Shown: positions 36,275 to 47,356 of the stretch, in pieces
Layout: each line of letters begins with the position of its first letter
Numbering within the stretch: position 1 is the first letter of the stretch
Assembly: GCA_964545915.1 (NCBI GenBank)
Contig: CAZJHQ010000005.1
Location: forward strand, 29,374-93,373
Reading direction: 5' to 3'
Length of the DNA stretch: 64,000 bases
Origin: an uncultured Candidatus Kuenenia sp.
GTDB taxonomy: Bacteria > Planctomycetota > Planctomycetia > Pirellulales > UBA1268
Translations under genes and position numbers: made by a program
The notes under the pieces: generated by a model
What the model was told of the DNA's origin: nothing
Databases searched by the model: none
The model's input: the letters and a program-made list of their open reading frames with translations, nothing else

Positions 36275-37006
36275 TCATGAGTCGAGGCCGGCGAACAGCG
36301 CCGAGCCGATGCGAATCATCGTCGCGCCTTCGAGGATCGCCTCCACGAAGTCGCCACTCATTCCCATCGAGAGTTCGCGCAGAGAATCGCCCCCCGGGAG
36401 CGTCGCCGCAAACCGGTCACGCAGTTCGCGCAGCCGGGCGAACTCGCGGCGGGCGGCCCACGGATCGCCGTCCGGCACACTCGCCATGCCCATCAGGCCG
36501 CGGATGCGAATCTCGGGCCGCGTCGCCGCTGCGGCCACGATCGCCTCCGCCTCGGCCTCCGTGGCCCCGGTGCGGTCGGGATCGCCTGCCAGGTTCACCT
36601 CCACGAGCGCCTCGCACACGCCCCCGGCGGCGGACTCCGCGGCCAGCGCCTCGAGCAGCCGCCCGCTGTCGAGCGAATGAATGAGCGGGTTCACGGCCAA
36701 CGTGCGGCGGATCTTGTTCCGCTGCAGGTGCCCGATGAGATGCCAACGCGGCGGCGGCGCCAGGTCGGCGAGGGCCTCCGCCTTGCCCCACAACGCCTGC
36801 GGCCGGCTCTCGGCGAGGTCGTGGCAGCCCGCGGCATGCACGAGCCGAGCGGCTGCGGCATCGACGTACTTCGTGACCCCGATGAGCGTCACCGTGGCCG
36901 GGTTGCGGCCCGCGCGGCGGCAGGCCTCGGCGACCTGGTCGCGGACCCGAGCCAGATTGGCGGCCACCACCGCCGCGGCCCCCTCCGGCAGCGGCCGGCC
37001 GGTCAC
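36275..37006 (-). CDS. yggS: YggS-family pyridoxal-phosphate homeostasis protein
   Basis: 243 aa. PLP-Lys context LIGVTKYV, HLIGHLQRNK, MGMS. GTG start, GTGA overlap with the upstream gene stop. Confidence 0.9.
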   Translation of the reverse strand: MTGRPLPEGAAAVVAANLARVRDQVAEACRRAGRNPATVTLIGVTKYVDAAAARLVHAAGCHDLAESRPQALWGKAEALADLAPPPRWHLIGHLQRNKIRRTLAVNPLIHSLDSGRLLEALAAESAAGGVCEALVEVNLAGDPDRTGATEAEAEAIVAAAATRPEIRIRGLMGMASVPDGDPWAARREFARLRELRDRFAATLPGGDSLRELSMGMSGDFVEAILEGATMIRIGSALFAGLDS

Positions 37007-38763
37007 TGGATCTCGAGCGTGCGGGCCACCTCACCCGAACGCTTCACGCGGCCGAGCAGGAACTCGCACGACACGTTGCAGCCAAGGAGCGTCCGGTTCC
37101 GGGGCACGTCGAGCGCCCGATACAGCAGCCATTGTTCGAGGCCCGCCTGCACCCGAAATCCCACGGCCTGGTGCGGCGGCAGGATCGTCCGCATGTCGGC
37201 GACGGTCAGCTGCCGCCAGGTTCTCGGCTTCGCGATTCGCTTCGCGTCGCAGTCGATCCACAAGGGGGCGTACAGCCGGATCGCGCCCTGCTGTTCCAAC
37301 ACCAGCCCGTCGGCCGTGACGTCGAGCGCCCCGCGGCCCGCCACCCGCCACTCGGGCAGGGCCAGCGGCAACGCCATGAATCGCGTTTTGGTATCCGCCG
37401 TGATCACTTCGCGAGTCTCCTCCTCGCGGTGGCAATCGAGGCCGCCTGCGACCGGGACCGTGCCGCGATACCGCAGATCCTGCACCGCCACGGACCCGCC
37501 GGGACGCGGCGTGACGGCATCCGCCAGCAGCACGAGCTTTTCTCCGGGCAGGACGACCACCTGTCGCTCGATCTGCATGCCGCCGGTGAGCGGCGCCACG
37601 ACTTCCAGGAACGTCGCCTTGCGATCGGACTCCCAGCAGGAGACGGTCCACGCCCCCTCCGCGTCGAGCGGCCGCCCCTCGGCGACGGCCGACCAGCGCC
37701 ACGGCCCGTCCACAAGCAGGCGGTCGTCCACCGCGATCTCCAGCCGCGGCGTCGCCTCGCGGTACTCCAGCAGCACACGCACGCCGCCCCGTTCCCAGCC
37801 GGAACGGAGCACGGCCACGGCCGCAGCCGGGTCGTGGAAGTCGCGCGGCAGGCAGCGGCCGGCGACGCGGCCCCGCACCAGCGCTCGGGCCGCCCGGACG
37901 GCCGGCCGGGATCCGTCGCGACACGACGTCAGCGCATCGAGCAGCGGCGCCGAGAAGCACGCGGGCAGACGTCCGGGGCCGGCGAGGATTCGCCCGCCCC
38001 CGCCGAGCAGTCGCAGGGCGGCGGCGGCGGCCGTAGCCCATGCCGTCTCGGTGGCCTCGTTCCACGGCGGGCCGCCCGTCGCCAGCCCTGCCGCGCGAAC
38101 GCCGCTCCAGCGCACGATTCGCTCGACGACGGCCGCTGATCCTGACAGGCCGACGGCGCCGGCCGCCGTCACCAGCCGCCGGATCTCCTCGGCGACGGCC
38201 GCCGTCGCCGACTCCTCCAGGCAGCGGCAGGCCTCGATGTCGTTGAACAGCCGGGCCAGCACGAGCACGAATCGCGCCGGCTGTGTGTCGCGGCCGGCCA
38301 GCATTCTCTCCGCCGCCCGTGCCTGCTGCACGAGCCGCTCGAGCAGACCCCCGGCGGAGCCGCCCGCCCGCTTCGTCCGGGCCATCCATCCCAAGGCCCA
38401 CGCCGCCGCCTCGCAGAGCAGCCAACGGTCCGGCGACTCGGCACACTCGATCACGTGATCGAGGCACGCACCGATCTCCGTCTCCAGGAACGTCATCCGC
38501 TGCGCGTTTCCGGATCCGCGCCCCACCTGGCCGGCGAGCCGCCGCAGCCGCCGCCGCACCTCGATCGAGCCGCTGACCTCGGCCAGCTCCCGGATCCGCC
38601 TGCCCGCGGCGCGGCCGCCCACCTTCGCCGGCACGCCCCGGTGCCCCGCACCCTGGTTCCGCCCGGAAGGTGGGGGCGTGGTCGCTTCCTGGGCCTGGCG
38701 GGCCTCGGCGTTCCCACGACTCTTGCCCTTGGCCTGCTTCTTCTTGTGATGCGTCGCGACCAT
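37003..38763 (-). CDS. Hypothetical protein, possibly heparinase II/III-like
   Basis: 586-aa coding-looking frame. Lys-rich N-terminus (MVATHHKKKQAKGKSR). The C-terminal half resembles the heparinase II/III beta-sandwich region only loosely, so function is uncertain. Confidence 0.55.
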   Translation of the reverse strand: MVATHHKKKQAKGKSRGNAEARQAQEATTPPPSGRNQGAGHRGVPAKVGGRAAGRRIRELAEVSGSIEVRRRLRRLAGQVGRGSGNAQRMTFLETEIGACLDHVIECAESPDRWLLCEAAAWALGWMARTKRAGGSAGGLLERLVQQARAAERMLAGRDTQPARFVLVLARLFNDIEACRCLEESATAAVAEEIRRLVTAAGAVGLSGSAAVVERIVRWSGVRAAGLATGGPPWNEATETAWATAAAAALRLLGGGGRILAGPGRLPACFSAPLLDALTSCRDGSRPAVRAARALVRGRVAGRCLPRDFHDPAAAVAVLRSGWERGGVRVLLEYREATPRLEIAVDDRLLVDGPWRWSAVAEGRPLDAEGAWTVSCWESDRKATFLEVVAPLTGGMQIERQVVVLPGEKLVLLADAVTPRPGGSVAVQDLRYRGTVPVAGGLDCHREEETREVITADTKTRFMALPLALPEWRVAGRGALDVTADGLVLEQQGAIRLYAPLWIDCDAKRIAKPRTWRQLTVADMRTILPPHQAVGFRVQAGLEQWLLYRALDVPRNRTLLGCNVSCEFLLGRVKRSGEVARTLEIQ

Positions 38764-38862
38764 CTGCAGCCCAGCCTCCGGAGTTTCCCTGTCGACCCGC
38801 GGGCCGGTATCGTAACGGAGGCGGTGGCGGTTCTCCACGGCCCGATCCCCCAGGAGCCCACC

Positions 38863-39609
38863 ATGTTTCACGCCTGTCTCCGTTCCTGCTGCCTCGCGGG
38901 CATGCTGCTAGCCTGCGTCGGGTCACCGCGACCGCTCCTCGTGGCGGCCGAGCCCCCGACCGCGGCTGCCGACGCGGAGGCCCCGCCCCGCCCCGCCTCC
39001 CGGCCCGACCGGCATCCCGAGCTCAAGCGGCTGTCGCGCACCGAGGAGGTGTGGATCGACAAGGCCCGCAAGGAAGTGATCGTGGGCGGGAAGATCGTGC
39101 TCGACCGGGGCCCGATCGAGGTGTTTGCGTGCGTCGAGAAGACGAAGGAGCACGAGGCGATCGTGGCCACCCGGTCGACCGCTCGGCTGATCCACGCGGC
39201 GCTGTTGGCGATCGGGCTCGACCCGGGAAGCCCGGTGTCGTTCGATCCCGAGTATGCGCCCGCCAAGGGGCCGCGGGTGAGCGTCCGGCTGCGCTGGAAA
39301 GACGCCGCGGGCAAGGAGCAACAGGCGCGGGCCCAGGAATGGATCCGCAACGCGCAGACAGGAAAGCAACTCGAAGCCGAATGGGTGTTCGCCGGCAGTT
39401 CGTTTTGGCGGGATCCCAATGACGGCATCGAGTACTACCAGGCCGATGGCGGCGACGTGATCTGCGTGTCGAACTTCCCCACGGCGCTGCTCGACCTGCC
39501 GCTGCAGAGCTCGCAGGCCAATGCGGACCTCCTCTTCGAGGCCTTCGCGGGCCGTGTGCCCCCCCGAGACACCGAGGTCGACCTGATCCTCTCCGCGGTC
39601 AAGGAGTGA
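38863..39609 (+). CDS. Secreted hypothetical protein
   Basis: Signal-like N-terminus MFHACLRSCCLAGMLLACVG. 248 aa with coding-like composition. No motif I can name confidently. Confidence 0.6.
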   Translation: MFHACLRSCCLAGMLLACVGSPRPLLVAAEPPTAAADAEAPPRPASRPDRHPELKRLSRTEEVWIDKARKEVIVGGKIVLDRGPIEVFACVEKTKEHEAIVATRSTARLIHAALLAIGLDPGSPVSFDPEYAPAKGPRVSVRLRWKDAAGKEQQARAQEWIRNAQTGKQLEAEWVFAGSSFWRDPNDGIEYYQADGGDVICVSNFPTALLDLPLQSSQANADLLFEAFAGRVPPRDTEVDLILSAVKE

Positions 39610-39618
39610 TGTCCGGCG

Positions 39619-40509
39619 TCAGCCGACGTGGCAGTGAGCCAGGACATCCCGCGGCGGCGCCACGTATCCGGTGTAGAACGGGCCGAACTCGGCGTAGCGG
39701 GCGCTCGCCTCGTCGAACCGCATCGTGTAGACGATCTCCTTCAGCCAGTCGGGCCGCCGGGCCCAGAGCGTCACGCCCCACTCCCAGTCGTCGAGCCCCA
39801 CGGCCACCGTGATCAGCTGGCTGACGCGGCCGCCGAACTTCATCCCCGAGGCGCCGTGCTCGGCCATCAGCCGGCTGCGTTCCGCGAACGGCAGCGTGAA
39901 CCAGTTCTCGCCCACCTTCCGCTTCTTGTTCATCGGGTAGAAGCAGGCGTTGGGCCACGGGGGCAGCTCCGGCTCCAGCCGCGCCTGCCGCATCGCCGGC
40001 TCCCGCGCCGCGTAGCCCTGCACCTTGGCGTTGTAGGACGGACTGTCGGCCACCTCCCCCTCGGCCACGAGCCGGGCGGCGTACTGTTCGACCGTCGGCA
40101 CGTACTCGCTCACCTCGGTGAGGCTCACGAACGAGTAGGTGGGCACGAGGGCCGGGCCGAGCGGGCCGGCCAGCAGCCGCTGGTGCACGTCGTCGACCGC
40201 CAGCGGCGAGCGATCCATGACCACGACGCCGAAGTCGGCCTTGTGGCCGGGCACGACCCAGGTCTGGAGCCGCCGGGGCGCGTGCGGTGCGGCGGGGTCG
40301 AGCGTGGCGGCGAAGGCATCGACGCCGGCGGCGATCTCCGCGGCCGAGAGCGCCGCCAGCCGGCCGCGGTCGAAGGCGTAGAACGAATGGGTCACGTGCC
40401 AGCCGGTGCAGGGCTCGATCGAGGTCTCGACGGACTGGGCGGCGGCGTGCGGTGGCGGCCCGCCGTGGCGGTGGGGCGCGGCGGGGGCGGCAGGCTGTGA
40501 CACGGGCAT
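39619..40509 (-). CDS. Chlorite dismutase-family protein, coproheme decarboxylase (HemQ/ChdC)-like
   Basis: C-terminal signature WFTLPFAERSRLMAEHG ... GLDDWEWGVTLWA ... YTMRFDEASARYAEFGPFYTG. ATG 40509; the upstream part of the track ORF is shadow. Confidence 0.8.
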   Translation of the reverse strand: MPVSQPAAPAAPHRHGGPPPHAAAQSVETSIEPCTGWHVTHSFYAFDRGRLAALSAAEIAAGVDAFAATLDPAAPHAPRRLQTWVVPGHKADFGVVVMDRSPLAVDDVHQRLLAGPLGPALVPTYSFVSLTEVSEYVPTVEQYAARLVAEGEVADSPSYNAKVQGYAAREPAMRQARLEPELPPWPNACFYPMNKKRKVGENWFTLPFAERSRLMAEHGASGMKFGGRVSQLITVAVGLDDWEWGVTLWARRPDWLKEIVYTMRFDEASARYAEFGPFYTGYVAPPRDVLAHCHVG

Positions 40510-40668: not shown

Positions 40669-40941
40669 ATGGGACAGGCGATCGTCGATCCGGCTGAGCT
40701 CCGCAGGTTCGCGGGCAGCCTGCGGAAGTTCAGCGACGAAGTGGTGGCCCAGATGCAGATGGTGCAGCGGCAGCTCGCCGCCTTGAGCTCCACGTGGCGC
40801 GACCAGGAGCAGCAGAAGTTCGCCGAGGAGTTCGAGCAGCAGCTCGGCACCTTCAAGCGGTTCGCGGAGTCGACCAGCGAATACGTCCCCTACCTGATCC
40901 GCAAGGCGGAGCGGGTCGAGGAATACCTGCAGCAACGCTGA
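40669..40941 (+). CDS. WXG100-like small helical-hairpin protein (W-x-D variant), 90 aa
   Basis: Two predicted helices joined at mid-length by STWRDQEQQKFAEEF (compare W-x-G-x3-x-x-F of Esx proteins). GGGGAG 6 nt upstream of the ATG. First gene of an operon with an FtsK/SpoIIIE ATPase. Confidence 0.65.
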   Translation: MGQAIVDPAELRRFAGSLRKFSDEVVAQMQMVQRQLAALSSTWRDQEQQKFAEEFEQQLGTFKRFAESTSEYVPYLIRKAERVEEYLQQR

Positions 40942-40964
40942 TCGCCGCGCCAGGAGCCCGCCGC

Positions 40965-41567
40965 ATGTCCGACCAGGCCGACGTCAAGTCGATCGACACG
41001 CTCGCCTTCGTCAAGGCGGCGTTCGCGGCGTTCGCGCACGAGACCAACCAGGCCGTCTCCGAGATCGAGATCCAGGGGCAGCGGGCCGTGGAATGGATCA
41101 CGGTCGACCGGGCCGCCTTCTGGAAGGCGGAAATCCGCCGCCGGTCCGACATCGTCAACAAGGCGATCAAGGATCTGGAGCACTGCCGCACCTTCAAGAA
41201 GGTGGGCGACAACACGCCGTCGTGCATCGAGGAAAAGAAGGCCCTCGACAAGGCGCGGAAGCTGCTGGAGACGGCCGAGCGCAAGGCCGAGGCCGTCCGC
41301 CGCTGGACGCCGGTCGTGCAGCAGCAGTTTCGTGAGACGTGCGTGCGGCTGGTGCGGTTCCGCGAGGTGATCGACGTCGATTGCCCGCGGGCGATGGCCC
41401 AGCTCGAGAAGATGCTCAAGGCGCTGGACGCCTACCAAAACGCATCCAGCCCGCGGGCGGCGGACGGCGGCGCGGGCGGCACCGGGGCCCAGAACGTCAC
41501 GCGCCAGCTCGACGCAGCGGCGCCCCCCGCACCGGCCGCGGCCCCCCCCACGGAGGCGGCATCATGA
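40965..41567 (+). CDS. All-helical hypothetical protein (200 aa) with Ala/Pro/Gly-rich tail
   Basis: AGGAG 9 nt upstream of ATG 40965. Coding-like composition. The stop overlaps the next start (ATGA 41564-41567). No recognisable domain. Confidence 0.65.
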   Translation: MSDQADVKSIDTLAFVKAAFAAFAHETNQAVSEIEIQGQRAVEWITVDRAAFWKAEIRRRSDIVNKAIKDLEHCRTFKKVGDNTPSCIEEKKALDKARKLLETAERKAEAVRRWTPVVQQQFRETCVRLVRFREVIDVDCPRAMAQLEKMLKALDAYQNASSPRAADGGAGGTGAQNVTRQLDAAAPPAPAAAPPTEAAS

Positions 41568-41800
41568 AGGTCGGCGACCTCTCCAGCGGGGCCTCGAAAC
41601 TCGCCAACGCCCTCAAGCAGCTCAACATCAAGTGGGACAGTGCCAAGGACACATGGCACGACACCCGCGCCAAGGCCTTTCAGAAAGACAACGTCGAGCC
41701 GCTGCTGCCGGCCGTCAAGGAAACCCTCGACGCCCTCGGGCGGCTGGCCGAGGTTCTCGACCGGGCCGCCCGCGACGTCAGCGAGCACGACGGCGGCTGA
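41564..41800 (+). CDS. WXG100-like small helical-hairpin protein (W-x-D variant), 78 aa
   Basis: Central DTWHDTRAKAF parallels STWRDQEQQKF of the 90-aa protein. GGAGG 8 nt upstream. Translationally coupled to the preceding gene. Confidence 0.6.
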   Translation: MKVGDLSSGASKLANALKQLNIKWDSAKDTWHDTRAKAFQKDNVEPLLPAVKETLDALGRLAEVLDRAARDVSEHDGG

Positions 41801-41840
41801 CGCCGCTTCCCGCCCCGCACCACCCCGTGGATCAGCATCT

Positions 41841-44800
41841 GTGAGCACCGACGCCCTTCCCGCCCCAGCCGCCTCCGTGAACGCCTACGACCGCGACCTC
41901 TTGCGCGGCCAGATGGAACTGCTGCGCACCGAGGCGGCCCTGCGGGCCCGCCTCGAGAACGAGATCGCGGCGGAGCACGAGGCGGCGGTGACGCAGACGC
42001 GGGCCGACGCGGAGGCCGCCCTCGCCGCCACGAAGCAGAAGTACGCCGCCGAGATCGAGGCCACGCAGCGGGAATACGCGGGCCTGCTGCACAAGGCCGA
42101 CGCCTACCTCGCCGCCGAGCGCGGCAAGCTCGACGAGCAGCGCAAGGCGATGGCCGCCCAGGTCGCCAAGCTCTGCGAGAAGGAGGCACGACAGGCAAAG
42201 GAAGACGATCAGTTCGACGAGCTGTCGATCAAGGAAAAGCACAAGGAGGACCGCAAGCAGCCGGCCCGCCTGTTCGCCAAGGATGAGAAGGAGGTCGCCC
42301 GCGTGAGCGGCCAGATCACCGAGGCGGAGGCGAAGGCGGGCCAGGCGCTGGCGACGTGCGGCCTGACACCGGCCGCCGGCGCGGACGACGCACCGCTCCC
42401 CGAGGGCAAGGAGCTGCTCGCCGAGATCGAGTCGCTGCGGGCTTCGATCGTCGAGCAGGCCAAGGTCATCGTCGACCTGCCGGCCGCGAAGCAGGCATTC
42501 GCCGGCGGCCTGCAGGGGGCGGCGATCGGGCTGCCGATCGTGCTCGGCCTGGCGGCAGGGGCCGCCGCCTTCTTCGGCCTGCCCGGCGGCATGGACATGG
42601 GCCTCAAGGCGGCCGCGGCGGCCGGCACGGCCGCGGTCCTCGCCGGCGGCGGGATCGCGGGCGGCCTGTCGTTCGTGCGCGGTCGGCGGAAGGTCGCCCG
42701 CGAGCAGCTCGCCGGCCTGCAGGCGGCACTGGCGACCGCGGTGGCCCGGGCCCGGCGGCTCGAACCGGCCTGCGCCGAGTTCCTCAAGGTCCGCCGGGAC
42801 GAGCAGGCGACGAGGCTCGAAGCCCGCTTCGCACAGGAGCAGGAGCAGCGCCGGGCGAAGTCGGAAGAGCGGCTGGCGTCGTTCACGGCCAAGCGTGACA
42901 AGGCGCTTGCCGACCTGGAGGCGAAGTACCGCGGCTCGTGCGCGGCTCTCGCTCAGAAGGTGGCGGCGGCGAAGGACGCCGCGGAGCAGAAGTATCCGCC
43001 GCGGCTGGCCGCGCTGGAGACCAGCGGCCGCGAGGACATCGCCACGCTCGAACGCGAGCGTGACGAGCGGCTGGCGGCCGCCGACCGCCGCCGCGACGAG
43101 CGGCACCGCGCGATGACCGCCCGCTGGCAGGAGGTCCGCGAGCGCACGGCCGCCGTCTACGACGAGGCCAATCGCATCGACGCCGCCGCCTTCAGGCCCT
43201 GGGACGAACTGGCCCGCGACGACGTGCCGCTGCCGGCCGATCCGCCCCCCGGGCTGCGGTTCGGGTCGCTGGGGCTGTCGCTGGAGCGGGTGCCGGGAGG
43301 CGTGTCGGGTGAGCCGGCGCTGAACGCCTTCGGTCCGGTGTCGTGGACGCAGCCGGCCATCCTCCCCTACCCCGTCCACTCCTCGCTGCTGATCAAGACG
43401 ACGGCCGACCAGAAGGAGACGGCCTCGGCGCTGCTCCAGGCGCTCACGCTGCGGATCGCCACCGGCATTCCGCCGGGGCAGAGCCGGTTCACGATCATCG
43501 ATCCGCTCGGCCTCGGCAAGCAGTTCGCCGGCTTCATGCACCTGGCCGACCACGACGAATTGCTCGTCACCAGCCGGATCTGGACGGAGCCGCCGCTCAT
43601 CGAGCAGAAGCTGGCCGACATCACCGAGCAGATGGAGGTGGTGATCCAGAAGTACCTGCGAAACGAGTACGAGTCGATCGGGGCCTACAACGCCGAGGCG
43701 GAGGTGCCGGAGCCCTACCGGTTCGTGGTCGTGGCCAACTTTCCCGCCAACTTCAACGAGACCAGCGCCCGCCGCCTGGCGAGCATCGCCGCTTCCGGCG
43801 CCCGTTGCGGCGTGTACACGATCATCTCGGTCGATACCAAGGCCCAGATGCCGTCGGGCTTCAGCCTCGCCGAGCTCGAGCAGCACGCGACCACGCTCGT
43901 GCTCAAGGACGGCACGTTCACCTGGAGCGACCCCGAGTTCTCCAAGTGGCCCCTGACCGTGGAGCAGGCGCCCCCCGACGACGTGTTCACGCAGATCATC
44001 CAGCGGGTCGGCAAGGCGGCCAAGGCCGCCAAGCGGATCGAGGTGCCGTTCGACCGCGTCGCCCCGGCGGAGGAGGACTGGTGGAAGGGGAGCACGGCCA
44101 ACGAGGTGCTCGCGCCGCTCGGCCCCGCCGGCGCCAAGAAGCTGCAGTACCTCAAGCTCGGCAAGGGCACGAGCCAGCACTGCCTGATCGCCGGCAAGAC
44201 GGGCTCCGGCAAGTCGACCCTCATGCACGCGATGATCACGAGCCTCGCGCTGCAGTACAGCCCCAACGAGATCCAGTTCTATCTCATCGACTTCAAGAAG
44301 GGCGTCGAGTTCAAGCTCTACGACCACTACAAGCTGCCGCACGCCCGCGTGATCGCCATCGAGAGCGAGCGCGAGTTCGGCCTCTCCGTGATGGAGCAGC
44401 TCGACCGCGAGCTGAAGCGGCGCGGCGACCTGTTCCGCGAGCTCTCCGTGCAGAACGTGGCAGGGTTCCGCCAGACGGGGCACCCCGACCCGATGCCGCG
44501 GATTTTGCTGCTCATCGACGAGTTCCAGGAAATCTTCGTCGAAGACGACAAGATCGCCCAGGATGCCTCGCTGATCCTCGACCGCCTCGTCCGCCAGGGC
44601 CGGGCCTTCGGCATGCACGTGCTCCTCGGCTCGCAGACGCTGGGCGGCTCCTACAGCCTGCCGCGGGCCACGATGGGGCAGATGGCCGTCCGCATCGCCC
44701 TGCAATGCAACGAGGCCGACTCGAGCCTCATCCTCTCGGAGGACAACACCGCCGCCCGCCTGCTGACCCGGCCCGGCGAGGCGATCTACAACGACGCCAA

Positions 44801-45992
44801 CGGCATGGTCGAGGGCAACAACCCGTTCCAGGTGGTGTTCCTCAACGACGACCGCCGGGAGCGGTATCTCGGCGCGCTGCGGGAGCTGGCCGACCGGCGG
44901 ACCGACATCCCGCAGCTGCCGCGGATCGTCTTCGACGGCAACCAGGCGGCCGAACCGGCGGGCAATCCCCTGCTCACGGAGCTCCTCGACGCCGGCACCG
45001 TGCACGGCCGGGAAATGACCGCGCCGCTCGCCTGGCTCGGCGATGCGATCGCCATCAAGGATCCAACCGCGGCGATCTTCCGCCGCCAGGGGGGAGCCAA
45101 CCTGCTGATCGTCGGCCAGCGCGAGGACCTGGGGGCCAGCCTGCTGGCGATGGCTCTCACCAGCCTCGCCGCCGGCCACGACCCGCACCCGGGCGGCGGC
45201 CTCGGTCGCGCCGCGCGGTTCGCGCTTCTCGAGCCGGCGATCGCCGAGGAGAAGCCCGACCTGCTGCTCGCAAAACTGGCCGACCACCTGCCCCACGAGA
45301 TCGAGGTCGTGGGCCGGCTGGGCACGGCCGACGCCCTGGAGACGCTGGCCGCCGAGATCCGCCGCCGGCTCGACGGGCAGATCATCGACGCCGAGGCGGT
45401 GTTCGTCGTGGTCCGCGACCTGGGCCGGTTCCGCGAACTCCGCAAGAGCGACAGCGACTTCGGCTTCTCGATGGGCGACAAGAAGGCCGGACCCGCGGAG
45501 AACTTCCTCACGCTCATCAAGGATGGTCCGGCCGTCGGCGTGCATGCCATCATCTGGTGCGACTCGCTGACGAACCTGCAGCGCACCTTCGACCGCAACG
45601 CGATCAAGGAGTTCGAACTGCGGGTCCTCTTCCAGATGAGCGGCAACGACTCCAGCCAACTCGTCGACACGCCCGCGGCCGCGAAGCTGGGCCCGCAGCG
45701 GGCCCTGTTCATCCACGAGGAGACCGGCACGCTGGAGAAGTTCCGCCCCTATGCGTTTCCGTCGGCCGAGTGGCTCGCCGCCGTCGCGGCGGCGATGGCG
45801 AAGCGGCCGCAGGGCACGCCGGTGCCCCGGCAGCGGCCGGCCGCGAAGCCGGCGACCGAGTCGGCCGATGTCGGCGGCGGACTCGGGGGCTTCACCGCGT
45901 TCGGCGGCGGCGATTTCAACTTCACGAAGATGCTCGACGACCTGCCCGGCGGCGACGAGACGACTCCCTCCGAAGACAACGCTGCAGGCTGA
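41841..45992 (+). CDS. Membrane FtsK/SpoIIIE-family ATPase with three tandem P-loop modules (EssC/EccC-like)
   Basis: Walker A GKTGSGKS (44193-44216), Walker B LLLIDEF (44505-44525), RQGRAFGMHVLLGSQ. It is flanked by two degenerate FtsK-like modules. Two TM helices (about 42510-42674) lie between two long coiled-coil regions. GTG 41841 is my best guess at the start; there is no clear SD. Confidence 0.85.
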   Translation: MSTDALPAPAASVNAYDRDLLRGQMELLRTEAALRARLENEIAAEHEAAVTQTRADAEAALAATKQKYAAEIEATQREYAGLLHKADAYLAAERGKLDEQRKAMAAQVAKLCEKEARQAKEDDQFDELSIKEKHKEDRKQPARLFAKDEKEVARVSGQITEAEAKAGQALATCGLTPAAGADDAPLPEGKELLAEIESLRASIVEQAKVIVDLPAAKQAFAGGLQGAAIGLPIVLGLAAGAAAFFGLPGGMDMGLKAAAAAGTAAVLAGGGIAGGLSFVRGRRKVAREQLAGLQAALATAVARARRLEPACAEFLKVRRDEQATRLEARFAQEQEQRRAKSEERLASFTAKRDKALADLEAKYRGSCAALAQKVAAAKDAAEQKYPPRLAALETSGREDIATLERERDERLAAADRRRDERHRAMTARWQEVRERTAAVYDEANRIDAAAFRPWDELARDDVPLPADPPPGLRFGSLGLSLERVPGGVSGEPALNAFGPVSWTQPAILPYPVHSSLLIKTTADQKETASALLQALTLRIATGIPPGQSRFTIIDPLGLGKQFAGFMHLADHDELLVTSRIWTEPPLIEQKLADITEQMEVVIQKYLRNEYESIGAYNAEAEVPEPYRFVVVANFPANFNETSARRLASIAASGARCGVYTIISVDTKAQMPSGFSLAELEQHATTLVLKDGTFTWSDPEFSKWPLTVEQAPPDDVFTQIIQRVGKAAKAAKRIEVPFDRVAPAEEDWWKGSTANEVLAPLGPAGAKKLQYLKLGKGTSQHCLIAGKTGSGKSTLMHAMITSLALQYSPNEIQFYLIDFKKGVEFKLYDHYKLPHARVIAIESEREFGLSVMEQLDRELKRRGDLFRELSVQNVAGFRQTGHPDPMPRILLLIDEFQEIFVEDDKIAQDASLILDRLVRQGRAFGMHVLLGSQTLGGSYSLPRATMGQMAVRIALQCNEADSSLILSEDNTAARLLTRPGEAIYNDANGMVEGNNPFQVVFLNDDRRERYLGALRELADRRTDIPQLPRIVFDGNQAAEPAGNPLLTELLDAGTVHGREMTAPLAWLGDAIAIKDPTAAIFRRQGGANLLIVGQREDLGASLLAMALTSLAAGHDPHPGGGLGRAARFALLEPAIAEEKPDLLLAKLADHLPHEIEVVGRLGTADALETLAAEIRRRLDGQIIDAEAVFVVVRDLGRFRELRKSDSDFGFSMGDKKAGPAENFLTLIKDGPAVGVHAIIWCDSLTNLQRTFDRNAIKEFELRVLFQMSGNDSSQLVDTPAAAKLGPQRALFIHEETGTLEKFRPYAFPSAEWLAAVAAAMAKRPQGTPVPRQRPAAKPATESADVGGGLGGFTAFGGGDFNFTKMLDDLPGGDETTPSEDNAAG

Positions 45993-46255: not shown

Positions 46256-47356
46256 TCACTGCCGGGGGCGGCGGCCGACCGCGACGGTCACCGCCAGCGG
46301 CGCCCCGTCGCGGACGAGATCGATGTCCACCGCCTGGCCCACCGGCACCCGGGTCAGCAGCAGCACGAGCGTCGCTGGATCGGCCACCTCCTCGCCGTCG
46401 AACCGCACGACCAGGTCTCCCGCGCGGATGCCCGCCAGCGCCGCCGGGGACCGCGGCTCGACGCCGGCCACGAGCACCCCGGCCACGTCGGCCGGCGTGG
46501 GCCGCAGCGCCATGCCGAGGTAGCCGCGCTCGACATGGCCCGTCTCGAGAATGGCGCCACACACCTGCCGCGCGGTGTTGCTCGGGATCGCGAAGCCGAT
46601 GCCCGAATAATCGCGGCCCACGATCGCCGTCGTGATCCCCATCACCCGGCCGTGCACGTCCACCAGCGGCCCCCCCGAGTTGCCCGGATTGATCGCCGCA
46701 TCGGTCTGCAGGAACTCCTGATACGGGCTCTCGAGCACGCCCCGCCGGCCGACGGCGCTGACGATGCCGTAGGTGATCGTGCGATCGAGGCCGAAAGGGC
46801 TGCCCATCGCCCACACCATCTCCCCCACCTCCACGGTCTCGCTGTCGCCCCAGGCGGCCGTCGGCAACTGTTTGGCGTCGATCCGCAGCACGGCCAGGTC
46901 GGTCGCGGCGTCGGCACCGACGAGGTCGGCCGCGAAGGTGCGGCCGTCGGCCAGCGTCACGTCGATCGCGTCGCTGTTGGCGACGACGTGGTAGTTGGTG
47001 ACGATCACGCCGTCCTCGGCGACGATCACTCCCGAGCCGACCGATTCGCTCGTGGCCCCGACTGGCCTGAGCCCGCGCAGCGAGGCGATCTCGTCGGCGA
47101 TCGTCAGCACGCGGCGTTTCGACGTCACGTTGACGACTGCCGGCCCGATGAGCCGGGCCAGCGTGGTGAACAGCTTGCCCACGCTCGTCAGCTCCGCCCC
47201 CGCCGCGGCGTCGCGAATCGCCGCCAGTTCCGCCCGGGTCTTGGCGTACTGCACCCGCCCGGCGAGCGACGGCCAGACGATCAGCCCGACCAGGCCCACG
47301 AGCCCGAGAAAGAGGAGCGTCGTGCGGCTCGCGCCGCCCCGGGGATCACCGTGCAT
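46256..47356 (-). CDS. HtrA/DegP-family serine protease with one PDZ domain
   Basis: N-terminal TM. Triad contexts TNYHVV, DLAVLRI, GNSGGPLV. C-terminal PDZ (GVLVAGVEPRSPAALAGIRAGDLVV). Confidence 0.9.
   Translation of the reverse strand: MHGDPRGGASRTTLLFLGLVGLVGLIVWPSLAGRVQYAKTRAELAAIRDAAAGAELTSVGKLFTTLARLIGPAVVNVTSKRRVLTIADEIASLRGLRPVGATSESVGSGVIVAEDGVIVTNYHVVANSDAIDVTLADGRTFAADLVGADAATDLAVLRIDAKQLPTAAWGDSETVEVGEMVWAMGSPFGLDRTITYGIVSAVGRRGVLESPYQEFLQTDAAINPGNSGGPLVDVHGRVMGITTAIVGRDYSGIGFAIPSNTARQVCGAILETGHVERGYLGMALRPTPADVAGVLVAGVEPRSPAALAGIRAGDLVVRFDGEEVADPATLVLLLTRVPVGQAVDIDLVRDGAPLAVTVAVGRRPRQ

Follow-up and report, generated by a model that had tools for sequence, protein, structure and literature searches.

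Recent papers and reviews still confine type VII secretion to Actinomycetota and Bacillota (PMC11217815, PMC13492133), and a related cassette of diderm bacteria has so far received no more than a table footnote and a side section, in papers devoted to other topics. Zhang et al. 2012 (PMC3482391, footnote 6) noted in silico a "solo WXG" protein together with a three-domain, middle-active EssC-like ATPase and listed planctomycetes for it, and Bell et al. 2024 (PMC11090510) described a cassette with two WXG100 proteins, one of them lacking the WxG motif, and a coiled-coil protein that bears a nuclease; its EssC homologue begins with a coiled coil longer than 200 residues, lacks transmembrane helices and has three ATPase domains, the central one alone being active. 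PMC4978471 also describes this architecture, and Uchiyama et al. are among those who have given in silico accounts of it; the mobile copies either belong to CoCoNuT/TerY-P defence loci (PMC11090510) or come with nuclease toxins. Here, we describe a four-gene operon of this architecture in a 64,000-nucleotide stretch of DNA, which we call the window, from an uncultured Candidatus Kuenenia sp. (GTDB lineage Planctomycetota, Pirellulales; GenBank assembly GCA_964545915.1, contig CAZJHQ010000005.1, positions 29,374 to 93,373 of the forward strand).

The operon encodes a WXG100 protein of 90 amino acids (A90), a helical protein of 200 (B200), a second small protein of 78 (C78) and an ATPase of 1383. 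It has three FtsK-type domains with Walker A and B motifs in the middle one only, and a solo WXG100 protein with a WxG-less partner and a helical protein; we have very little doubt that it belongs to the WXG100/EssC-like cassette class. The mobile members are sporadically distributed and have no membrane helices in the ATPase, traits that describe them without strictly defining the class; the operon shows no such distribution and has a membrane hairpin in the ATPase of most orthologues. Taking the evidence as a whole, we lean, if only slightly, toward reading the operon as a chromosomal, stand-alone planctomycete form of this cassette, whose ATPase would move a bundle of A90, B200 and C78; that the operon actually exports anything we would place just short of an even bet. 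The initial annotation of this DNA had suggested a divergent exporter or a new use of this gene pair; as a kind, the module is not new, given the accounts of Zhang et al. and Bell et al. cited above. Its remark that no such module had been studied experimentally in this phylum does stand, literature searches on the operon in planctomycetes having found no such study, and in the experimental literature on Helicobacter pylori only crystal structures of HP0062, a relative of A90, turned up.

A conserved operon of four genes

The four genes lie as follows.

40669-40941, + strand: A90 gene, 90 amino acids, with a Shine-Dalgarno-like GGGGAG upstream
40965-41567, + strand: B200 gene, 200 amino acids
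41564-41800, + strand: C78 gene, 78 amino acids, its start overlapping the B200 stop in ATGA
41841-45992, + strand: EssC/EccC-like ATPase gene, 1383 amino acids, GTG start

All four open reading frames (ORFs) were found, co-directional, where the initial annotation had placed them; the stop/start overlap at 41564-41567 is real, and the Shine-Dalgarno-like sites it had reported on three genes are present as GGGGAG, AGGAG and GGAGG, 6-10 nucleotides 5' of the three small genes. The GTG start of the ATPase is supported by its orthologues, which begin "MST...YDRDLLR" at the equivalent position. Because the window has a G+C content of ~71%, long spurious ORFs are abundant in it; these four, all conserved in kept order, are genuine genes and not chance reading frames. 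A promoter and terminator scan of the operon returned nothing.

A survey of orthologue neighbourhoods across Planctomycetota, which the initial annotation had proposed, finds the four genes co-inherited. In a sample of 57 loci with enough upstream sequence, where the small genes were sought by tblastn, A90, B200 and C78 all stand in kept order upstream of the ATPase gene at 52, and at a 53rd (L063) the B200 orthologue was detected by clustering only. This arrangement spans four orders, with Pirellulales, Isosphaeraceae, Gemmataceae and Phycisphaerae lineages among them. At least 577 relatives of the ATPase occur among one genome per GTDB species, with carriers labelled Pirellulales, Planctomycetia, Isosphaeraceae, Gemmataceae, Paludisphaera or Phycisphaerales/Phycisphaerae, and some of the carriers are in culture: Singulisphaera sp. 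Ch08 (Isosphaeraceae), Kolteria novifilia Pan216 and Urbifossiella limnaea (Gemmataceae). The homologues of the ATPase make up more than 120 full-length clusters at 58-96% identity and one further cluster at ~50%.

Across 18 distant loci, conservation is 71% for the middle ATPase domain (D1), 55% for A90, 52% for the ATPase domain before D1 (D0), 45% for the one after it (D2), 36% for C78, 31% for B200 and 26% for the N-terminal region of the ATPase. To judge from the identities in distant orders, the operon is under purifying selection, and the 55% of A90 argues that this protein acts as a core component and not as a fast-evolving effector. The same housekeeping context surrounds the operon in related contigs. 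No mobile-element genes flank it in the window, no relaxase, integrase or other transfer genes lie near it, and no relatives were found on viral contigs; it is chromosomal, vertically inherited across Planctomycetota and non-mobile. The earlier statement that neither mobile genes nor other canonical components of a type VII secretion system (T7SS) flank the module is thus borne out, and no other neighbour stays with the four genes from order to order: a search across 21 loci for a fifth conserved gene, such as a membrane or outer-membrane partner, found none, though the flanks vary between orders.

Full-length ATPase orthologues with no A90, B200 or C78 gene within the flanks were seen at L049:5110-9081, L071:5857-9780, L066 and L076. 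Upstream of the ATPase lies a polyketide-synthase-like gene in L049 and a large unrelated ORF, apparently topoisomerase I, in L071; the small genes may lie elsewhere in these genomes, or the ATPases may be orphan paralogues. Several records of metagenome-assembled genomes (L006, L008, L013, L015, L028, L030-L032, L042 and L059), with ATPase orthologues 59-86% identical, are titled "Candidatus Kuenenia" or "Chitinophagaceae"; they are probably mislabelled bins, since the titles clash with the Pirellulales-type sequence similarity.

The three small proteins

That the 90-amino acid protein is of the WXG100 type, with a central tryptophan, was claimed at the outset, and the family model agrees: A90 scores 35.3 bits against Pfam PF06013 (cut-off 27.3), and W43 is invariant. 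With the TIGR03930 subfamily model, it scores 35.8 bits, under the cut-off of 44.85. The turn between the helices is an invariant W43-R44-D45 (40795-40803), a literal W-x-G turn being absent from both A90 and C78, which has W-x-D. A family profile built from 24 diverse orthologues and searched against the PDB has as its best solved match H. pylori HP0062 (3fx7/2gts, E 4e-11), whose turn is likewise W-R-D (PMC3397514), followed by 4j42 and related entries deposited as "secreted protein EsxB," streptococcal SAG1039 and Staphylococcus aureus EsxA. Identity to orthologues runs from 47 to 97%. On this evidence from profiles and motifs, A90 is a true WXG100-family two-helix hairpin, like EsxA and HP0062. 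No signal peptide or YxxxD/E motif can be read from the sequences of A90, B200 or C78.

For C78, which was to be compared with the same family, the outcome is divided: the protein is WXG100-like, with an invariant W31, and its score misses the Pfam cut-off. The family model matches 5 of 24 C78 family members. The invariant residues are W31-x-D33 (41654-41662) and F39, and against the A90 family (hhalign) the C78 family aligns on a common W-x-D-x5-F at E 7.5e-4. The PDB holds no sequence relative, only spurious TAL-repeat matches, and comparisons with H. pylori HP0065 and with the 76-amino acid protein of a Caballeronia plasmid were negative. C78 is probably a WXG100-like hairpin without WxG.

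B200, the third of these proteins, had been described as all-helical. The AlphaFold2 (AF2) model, which like the others used here rests on a shallow alignment of close homologues, shows a long helical hairpin, with helices at amino acids 5-27, 31-78, 85-136 and 141-160; its predicted local distance difference test score (pLDDT) is 65.8 for the whole protein and exceeds 90 in the central hairpin. The description therefore holds for amino acids 5-160 and fails for 161-200, a Pro/Ala/Gly-rich tail that is predicted to be disordered. There are 654 homologues, none of them named. Searches of Pfam, NCBIfam and the PDB by profile and a Foldseek search with the model found no significant relatives (best Foldseek E 0.14, to generic coiled coils), and hhalign comparisons with the A90 and C78 families were negative. 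The tail holds one recurrent element.

41493-41513, + strand: B200 tail motif NVTRQLD, amino acids 177-183

The motif, S-[VM]-[TA]-R-x-x-[DE][DE], occurs in 37 of 53 B200 orthologues, some of them in Phycisphaerales and distant Pirellulales, 19-22 residues past the helical domain, while the remainder of the tail is variable. It may serve as a signal for docking, export or cleavage.

In the operon, B200 occupies the slot that a coiled-coil-nuclease effector fills in the mobile relatives. The sole extra domain found on any B200 orthologue is in Phycisphaerales bin220 (CP070772.1; L053:3759-4820), where a 354-amino acid orthologue has an Imm33-like domain at its C-terminal end (Pfam E 1.4e-14).

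The ATPase

The regions of the ATPase are as follows.

41841-42485, + strand: N-terminal helical/coiled-coil region, amino acids 1-215, from composition
42519-42677, + strand: putative two-helix membrane hairpin, amino acids 227-247 and 255-279, then basic RGRRK; Kyte-Doolittle maximum 1.65
42693-43202, + strand: second helical/coiled-coil region, amino acids 285-454, from composition
43203-44084, + strand: D0, degenerate FtsK-like domain, amino acids 455-748, with IKTTADQKETAS at the P-loop and VVVANFP at Walker B
44085-44855, + strand: D1, ATPase domain, amino acids 749-1005, with Walker A GKTGSGKST (44193-44219, amino acids 785-793) and Walker B LLLIDEFQE (44505-44531)
44856-45845, + strand: D2, degenerate C-terminal FtsK-like domain, amino acids 1006-1335, with VGQREDLGAS and VVVRDLG
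45846-45989, + strand: C-terminal low-complexity tail, carrying FNFTKMLDD (45915-45941, amino acids 1359-1367)

The three tandem P-loop modules of the initial annotation survive as three FtsK-like domains by fold and profile; a P-loop with a Walker B motif is present only in the middle one. Pfam sees a single FtsK_SpoIIIE domain (PF01580, amino acids 758-933, 110.6 bits). D2 matches D1 by hhalign with a probability of 95% (E 3e-8), and the sequence signals of D0 are weak (E 0.12 against D1 by hhalign, E 0.018 against EssC 5fv0). In the AF2 model of amino acids 455-1383 (pLDDT 64, domain cores 70-90), D0 is an alpha/beta domain. D0 and D2 are non-canonical at the Walker A and B positions in every homologue aligned (11-29 homologues), and D1 is predicted from its motifs to be the sole catalytically competent ATPase domain; D2, by analogy with D3 of EccC, is inferred to be a candidate substrate-docking domain. 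D0, which HP0066 of H. pylori and the plasmid homologues also possess, matches 2241 cluster representatives in a library of 1.84 billion proteins, 896 of them at E <= 1e-30, and the best 150 of the 2241 are mostly proteins of ~1300 amino acids laid out in the same way, alongside shorter sequences that look partial.

Outside the domains, amino acids 17-175 consist to 77% of A/E/K/R/Q/L/D with 1 Pro (the coiled coil is read from this composition) and belong to the least conserved part of the protein; from amino acid 398, the region at amino acids 285-454 aligns with the N-terminal end of the ATPase on the Caballeronia plasmid. At the other end, a motif [DE]FNF[TSA]K[FML]LDD is found in 38 of 69 ATPase orthologues, all in the window's own clade, and distant orthologues end ~25-35 residues past KFRPY. 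In Urbifossiella limnaea (P0425, QDU20274.1, 1573 amino acids), an N-terminal Ser/Thr kinase domain (Pkinase, amino acids 38-296) is fused to the ATPase. Some T7SS variants are reported to be under kinase/FHA regulation; the fusion is reminiscent of this and also of the kinase of the TerY-P triad.

What kind of FtsK-like ATPase is this? Databases name its homologues "FtsK," its one Pfam domain is FtsK_SpoIIIE, and structures of FtsK and TcpA appear lower among its fold matches, from which one might suppose a chromosome-segregation or division paralogue of FtsK in these FtsZ-less planctomycetes or a conjugative DNA translocase of the TraB/TcpA type. The scores point elsewhere. Among NCBIfam models, EccCa gives 112 bits, EssC 105 and EccCb 99, and FtsK (NF007615) gives 33 against a cut-off of 1566, matched at model positions 1011-1106 only, which is the P-loop region. 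Nothing specific to FtsK beyond the motor is matched, and the four-helix membrane domain at the N-terminus of FtsK is missing. In the PDB, phmmer ranks Thermomonospora curvata EccC, EccC5 and YukB first (EccC 116 bits vs FtsK 46), and Foldseek places T. curvata EccC D1-D3 at the top, aligned over ~860 columns at E 8e-27, where FtsK motors align over ~310. With no transfer genes nearby and nothing on viral contigs, we reject an FtsK or conjugative translocase on hidden Markov model scores, architecture and context, and leave it only a very slight chance. The claim that the ATPase is of the EccC/EssC and not the FtsK type, which the initial annotation had wished to see checked against PF01580 and the EccC and EssC models, is upheld by these figures, within a limit: since all scores fall far below the equivalog cut-offs (EccCa 509, EssC 778), the ATPase is orthologous to neither EccC nor EssC.

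Relatives on plasmids and in Helicobacter pylori

When D0-D2 were searched against plasmids by tblastn, D0-containing homologues came up from Rhodococcus, Deinococcus, Caballeronia and one species of Helicobacter. On pSBC2-5 of Caballeronia sp. SBC2 (L088), the gene order is VWA, WXG100, a 436-amino acid protein, a 113-amino acid protein, a 76-amino acid protein, an FtsK-like protein of 927 amino acids, CARF, VWA, PP2C, Ser/Thr kinase and AAA, which is the CoCoNuT/TerY-P context. Its WXG100 protein, MAQAIGDPEELERFA...TWQD, is an orthologue of A90, matching the A90 profile with a probability of 99.4% (E 1.6e-21), and its ATPase is collinear with amino acids 398-1304 of the window's ATPase (28% identity, E 7e-80). 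A copy on a Rhodococcus plasmid (L087) adjoins TerD and DUF475 genes; there, the small genes seem to follow the ATPase gene.

In H. pylori (GCA_002533575.1; L086, 8001-12889), the order is HP0062, a 489-amino acid protein with a C-terminal WHH nuclease domain, an immunity protein of the SUKH (SMI1/KNR4) type, a 115-amino acid protein and HP0066, which aligns with the window's ATPase from D0 into D2 (amino acids 473-1106, 27% identity, E 4e-54). HP0062 homologues are already annotated "type VII secretion protein." About 4.2 kb upstream of HP0062 hold no called gene.

With WHH nuclease and SUKH proteins between HP0062 and HP0066, the H. pylori module looks like a toxin-immunity cassette, and one may ask whether the planctomycete operon is likewise an interbacterial toxin-export system, whose cargo toxins and immunity genes are encoded elsewhere in the genome. 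The Imm33-like fusion in L053 lends itself to this idea, as does the listing of planctomycetes by Zhang et al. 2012 (PMC3482391) for many toxin families with T7SS (WXG) as one export route. That lone fusion is the only toxin or immunity domain on B200 or beside the module in the 52-53 conserved loci, and the rest of the 64-kb window contains no paralogous WXG-like gene. Loci of polymorphic toxins normally vary and resemble islands; the operon is syntenic and conservative. We regard toxin export as improbable.

How the operon might work

ATPases of the FtsK/EssC type form hexamers. In the reading toward which we lean, the hairpin and coiled coils would hold a hexamer of the ATPase at the inner membrane, on its cytoplasmic face, D1 would supply energy as the motor, and the degenerate D0 and D2 would act as regulatory and substrate-docking domains, as do the DUF and D2/D3 in EccC. 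B200, A90 and C78 would assemble into an elongated helical bundle, to be compared with LXG-Lap1-Lap2 or PE-PPE targeting complexes, which the ATPase would engage and move to or across the cytoplasmic membrane. LXG-Lap1-Lap2 tripartite targeting complexes are known from the T7SS of Bacillota, T7SSb (PMC10801868); we propose the bundle from the likeness to these and to PE-PPE pairs and from the effector that the long protein carries in mobile relatives.

The hairpin bears directly on this proposal. Two clear hydrophobic helices are present in most orthologues, those of Phycisphaerae, Gemmataceae and Isosphaeraceae included. Close to the window, a subclade whose A90 is 95-97% identical keeps the three small genes and the rest of the ATPase and lacks the hairpin, which the protein alignment shows as cleanly deleted from P0109, P0110 and P0112; to judge from this pattern, the hairpin was lost secondarily in sister lineages. 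Because it is dispensable there and absent from the H. pylori and plasmid relatives, a pore built from the ATPase's own helices in the style of EccC/EssC is argued against.

Several results weigh against the transport reading more generally. The hairpin in the window itself is Ala/Gly-rich and marginally hydrophobic; it is missing in L009, L010, L014, L016-L018, L027, L033-L035 and L048, as well as from HP0066 and the plasmid ATPases; and for hairpin-less ATPases, Bell et al. judge that "a different mechanism appears likely" (PMC11090510). Neither EccB/D/E, MycP, EsaA, EssA, EssB nor EsaB/YukD, nor an outer-membrane component, was found in or near the module, the flanks being what was covered. 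C78 scores 24.4 bits with the Pfam WXG100 model, below the cut-off of 27.3 (E 3.7e-5). For B200, no similarity to LXG, PE/PPE or any solved fold was detected, the hhalign comparison with HP0063 was negative, and the match of its profile to the 436-amino acid coiled-coil protein of the Caballeronia plasmid is weak (E 0.0075). The ATPase model has moderate confidence (pLDDT 64). Secretion would be an extension to this operon of what related systems do, and the A90-B200-C78 heterotrimer is pure analogy.

Such points invite a different account, in which the operon encodes a non-secretory, cytoplasmic or membrane-peripheral machine of ATPase and adaptors whose role descends from a stress or defence function, and perhaps still serves it, and the WXG100-like proteins and B200 are regulators or adaptors of a hexameric motor that remodels or translocates an intracellular protein or nucleic acid. 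The dispensable hairpin fits it, as do the mobile relatives embedded in defence and stress loci (the Caballeronia and Rhodococcus plasmids; PMC11090510), the absence of an envelope-spanning partner at the loci and the kinase fusion of Urbifossiella limnaea with its echo of the TerY-P kinase. A90 is more conserved than D0, D2 and the N-terminal regions of the ATPase, and secreted effectors, to our knowledge, are usually less conserved than that. Most planctomycete lineages, the deepest sampled (Phycisphaerae) among them, nevertheless retain the two-helix hairpin, so that membrane tethering apparently matters, and no nuclease, CARF, VWA or kinase genes neighbour the operon in planctomycetes. PADLOC returned generic FtsK-domain matches for D1 (SspH, mad8 and HerA) and none for the small proteins, and an anti-phage defence system was rejected on that result. 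We know of no experimentally studied pair of WXG100 protein and EssC/EccC that is not a secretion system. The non-secretory account seems to us unlikely, though it is the strongest of the rivals.

Within the transport reading, the planctomycete system seems to have been domesticated to serve some conserved function in the envelope or in cell biology and not toxin delivery, since its B200 carries a disordered tail with a motif only. One could go further and suppose that a mobile WXG100/EssC-like conflict cassette became a phylum-wide core machine, gaining a hairpin, losing its nuclease and now moving or positioning its own helical partners at the inner membrane of a diderm for a housekeeping purpose, a history that we offer as a speculation with rather little probability behind it. 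The domesticated machine could alternatively be membrane associated and non-secretory, as the repeated loss of the hairpin hints.

Neighbouring genes

Three neighbours named in the initial annotation were confirmed by Pfam.

39622-40500, - strand: Chlor_dismutase/HemQ-like gene
46259-47356, - strand: HtrA gene
62113-63252, - strand: lipid A acyltransferase gene

On one side, the operon is flanked in the window by dnaG, rpoD, a CT398-like gene, greA, a yggS-like gene and hemQ and, on the other, by htrA and cinA; a YdjY-like gene is also among the neighbours. Two ORFs, at 37003-38871 (- strand, 622 amino acids) and 59543-62113 (- strand, 856 amino acids), have no Pfam match, and a counterpart of the first (586-612 amino acids, no Pfam hits) stands at the equivalent position in L081-L085. 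The whole 64-kb window contains no Rfam family at gathering threshold and no tRNA gene.

Implications

At least several hundred species-level genomes, culturable strains included, carry the planctomycete form as a stable operon of four genes. As far as the searchable literature goes, what is new is this phylum-wide, vertically inherited form, the hairpin and its secondary loss, an effector-less B200 with a conserved tail motif, and the homology to both the H. pylori and the CoCoNuT-linked modules. Culturable carriers make two questions testable: can a single EssC-like ATPase with WXG100-type hairpins move protein across a membrane without the usual accessory subunits, and what part does a T7-like module play in a cell that has an outer membrane? 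If the domestication idea is true, this would be the simplest natural T7-like translocase, with one ATPase and three helical proteins; if the function is not secretion, the way that WXG100/FtsK pairs are read in genome annotation would change.

Comparison with known systems

With the T7SS of Actinomycetota (T7SSa/ESX), the operon has in common an ATPase whose best structural match is EccC D1-D3 and a degenerate domain ahead of the active one, comparable to the DUF of EccC; it differs in having no EccB/D/E or MycP in its flanks and no YxxxD/E in its small proteins. With T7SSb, it has in common an EsxA-type WXG100 protein next to an FtsK-like ATPase of several domains, preceded by two membrane helices that are putative here, and, possibly, a long helical protein and two small hairpins that serve as a targeting complex (PMC10801868). 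It differs from T7SSb in lacking EsaA, EssA, EssB and EsaB in its flanks, in a coiled coil that replaces the FHA domains, in W-x-D in place of W-x-G and in its diderm host, and in having Walker A and B in one domain where EssC has them in two, D1 and D2, as Bell et al. summarize (PMC11090510).

The HP0062-HP0066 module of H. pylori, a "minimal T7SS," is like the operon in its diderm host and in the absence of other T7SS parts at the locus, with HP0062 as the best solved match of A90, the W-R-D turn and D0-D1-D2 in HP0066. HP0066 (805 amino acids) differs in having neither N-terminal coiled coil nor hairpin, and the middle genes differ in encoding a WHH nuclease toxin and SUKH protein and in that HP0063 and HP0065 have no detectable similarity to B200 and C78.

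The cassette linked to CoCoNuT/TerY-P (Bell et al. 2024, PMC11090510, and Anantharaman et al. 2012 as cited in it), of which that on Caballeronia pSBC2-5 is an example, has the same order of WXG100 protein, larger helical protein, small helical protein and ATPase, and the same N-terminal coiled coil followed by three FtsK-like domains, the middle one being the sole active one. It has no membrane helices, bears a nuclease (restriction-endonuclease-like D-ExK) on the coiled-coil protein, includes an extra small protein and resides on mobile DNA flanked by VWA, PP2C, kinase and CARF genes, whereas the planctomycete operon is free of any effector domain, has its own hairpin inserted in the coiled coil and sits among housekeeping genes.

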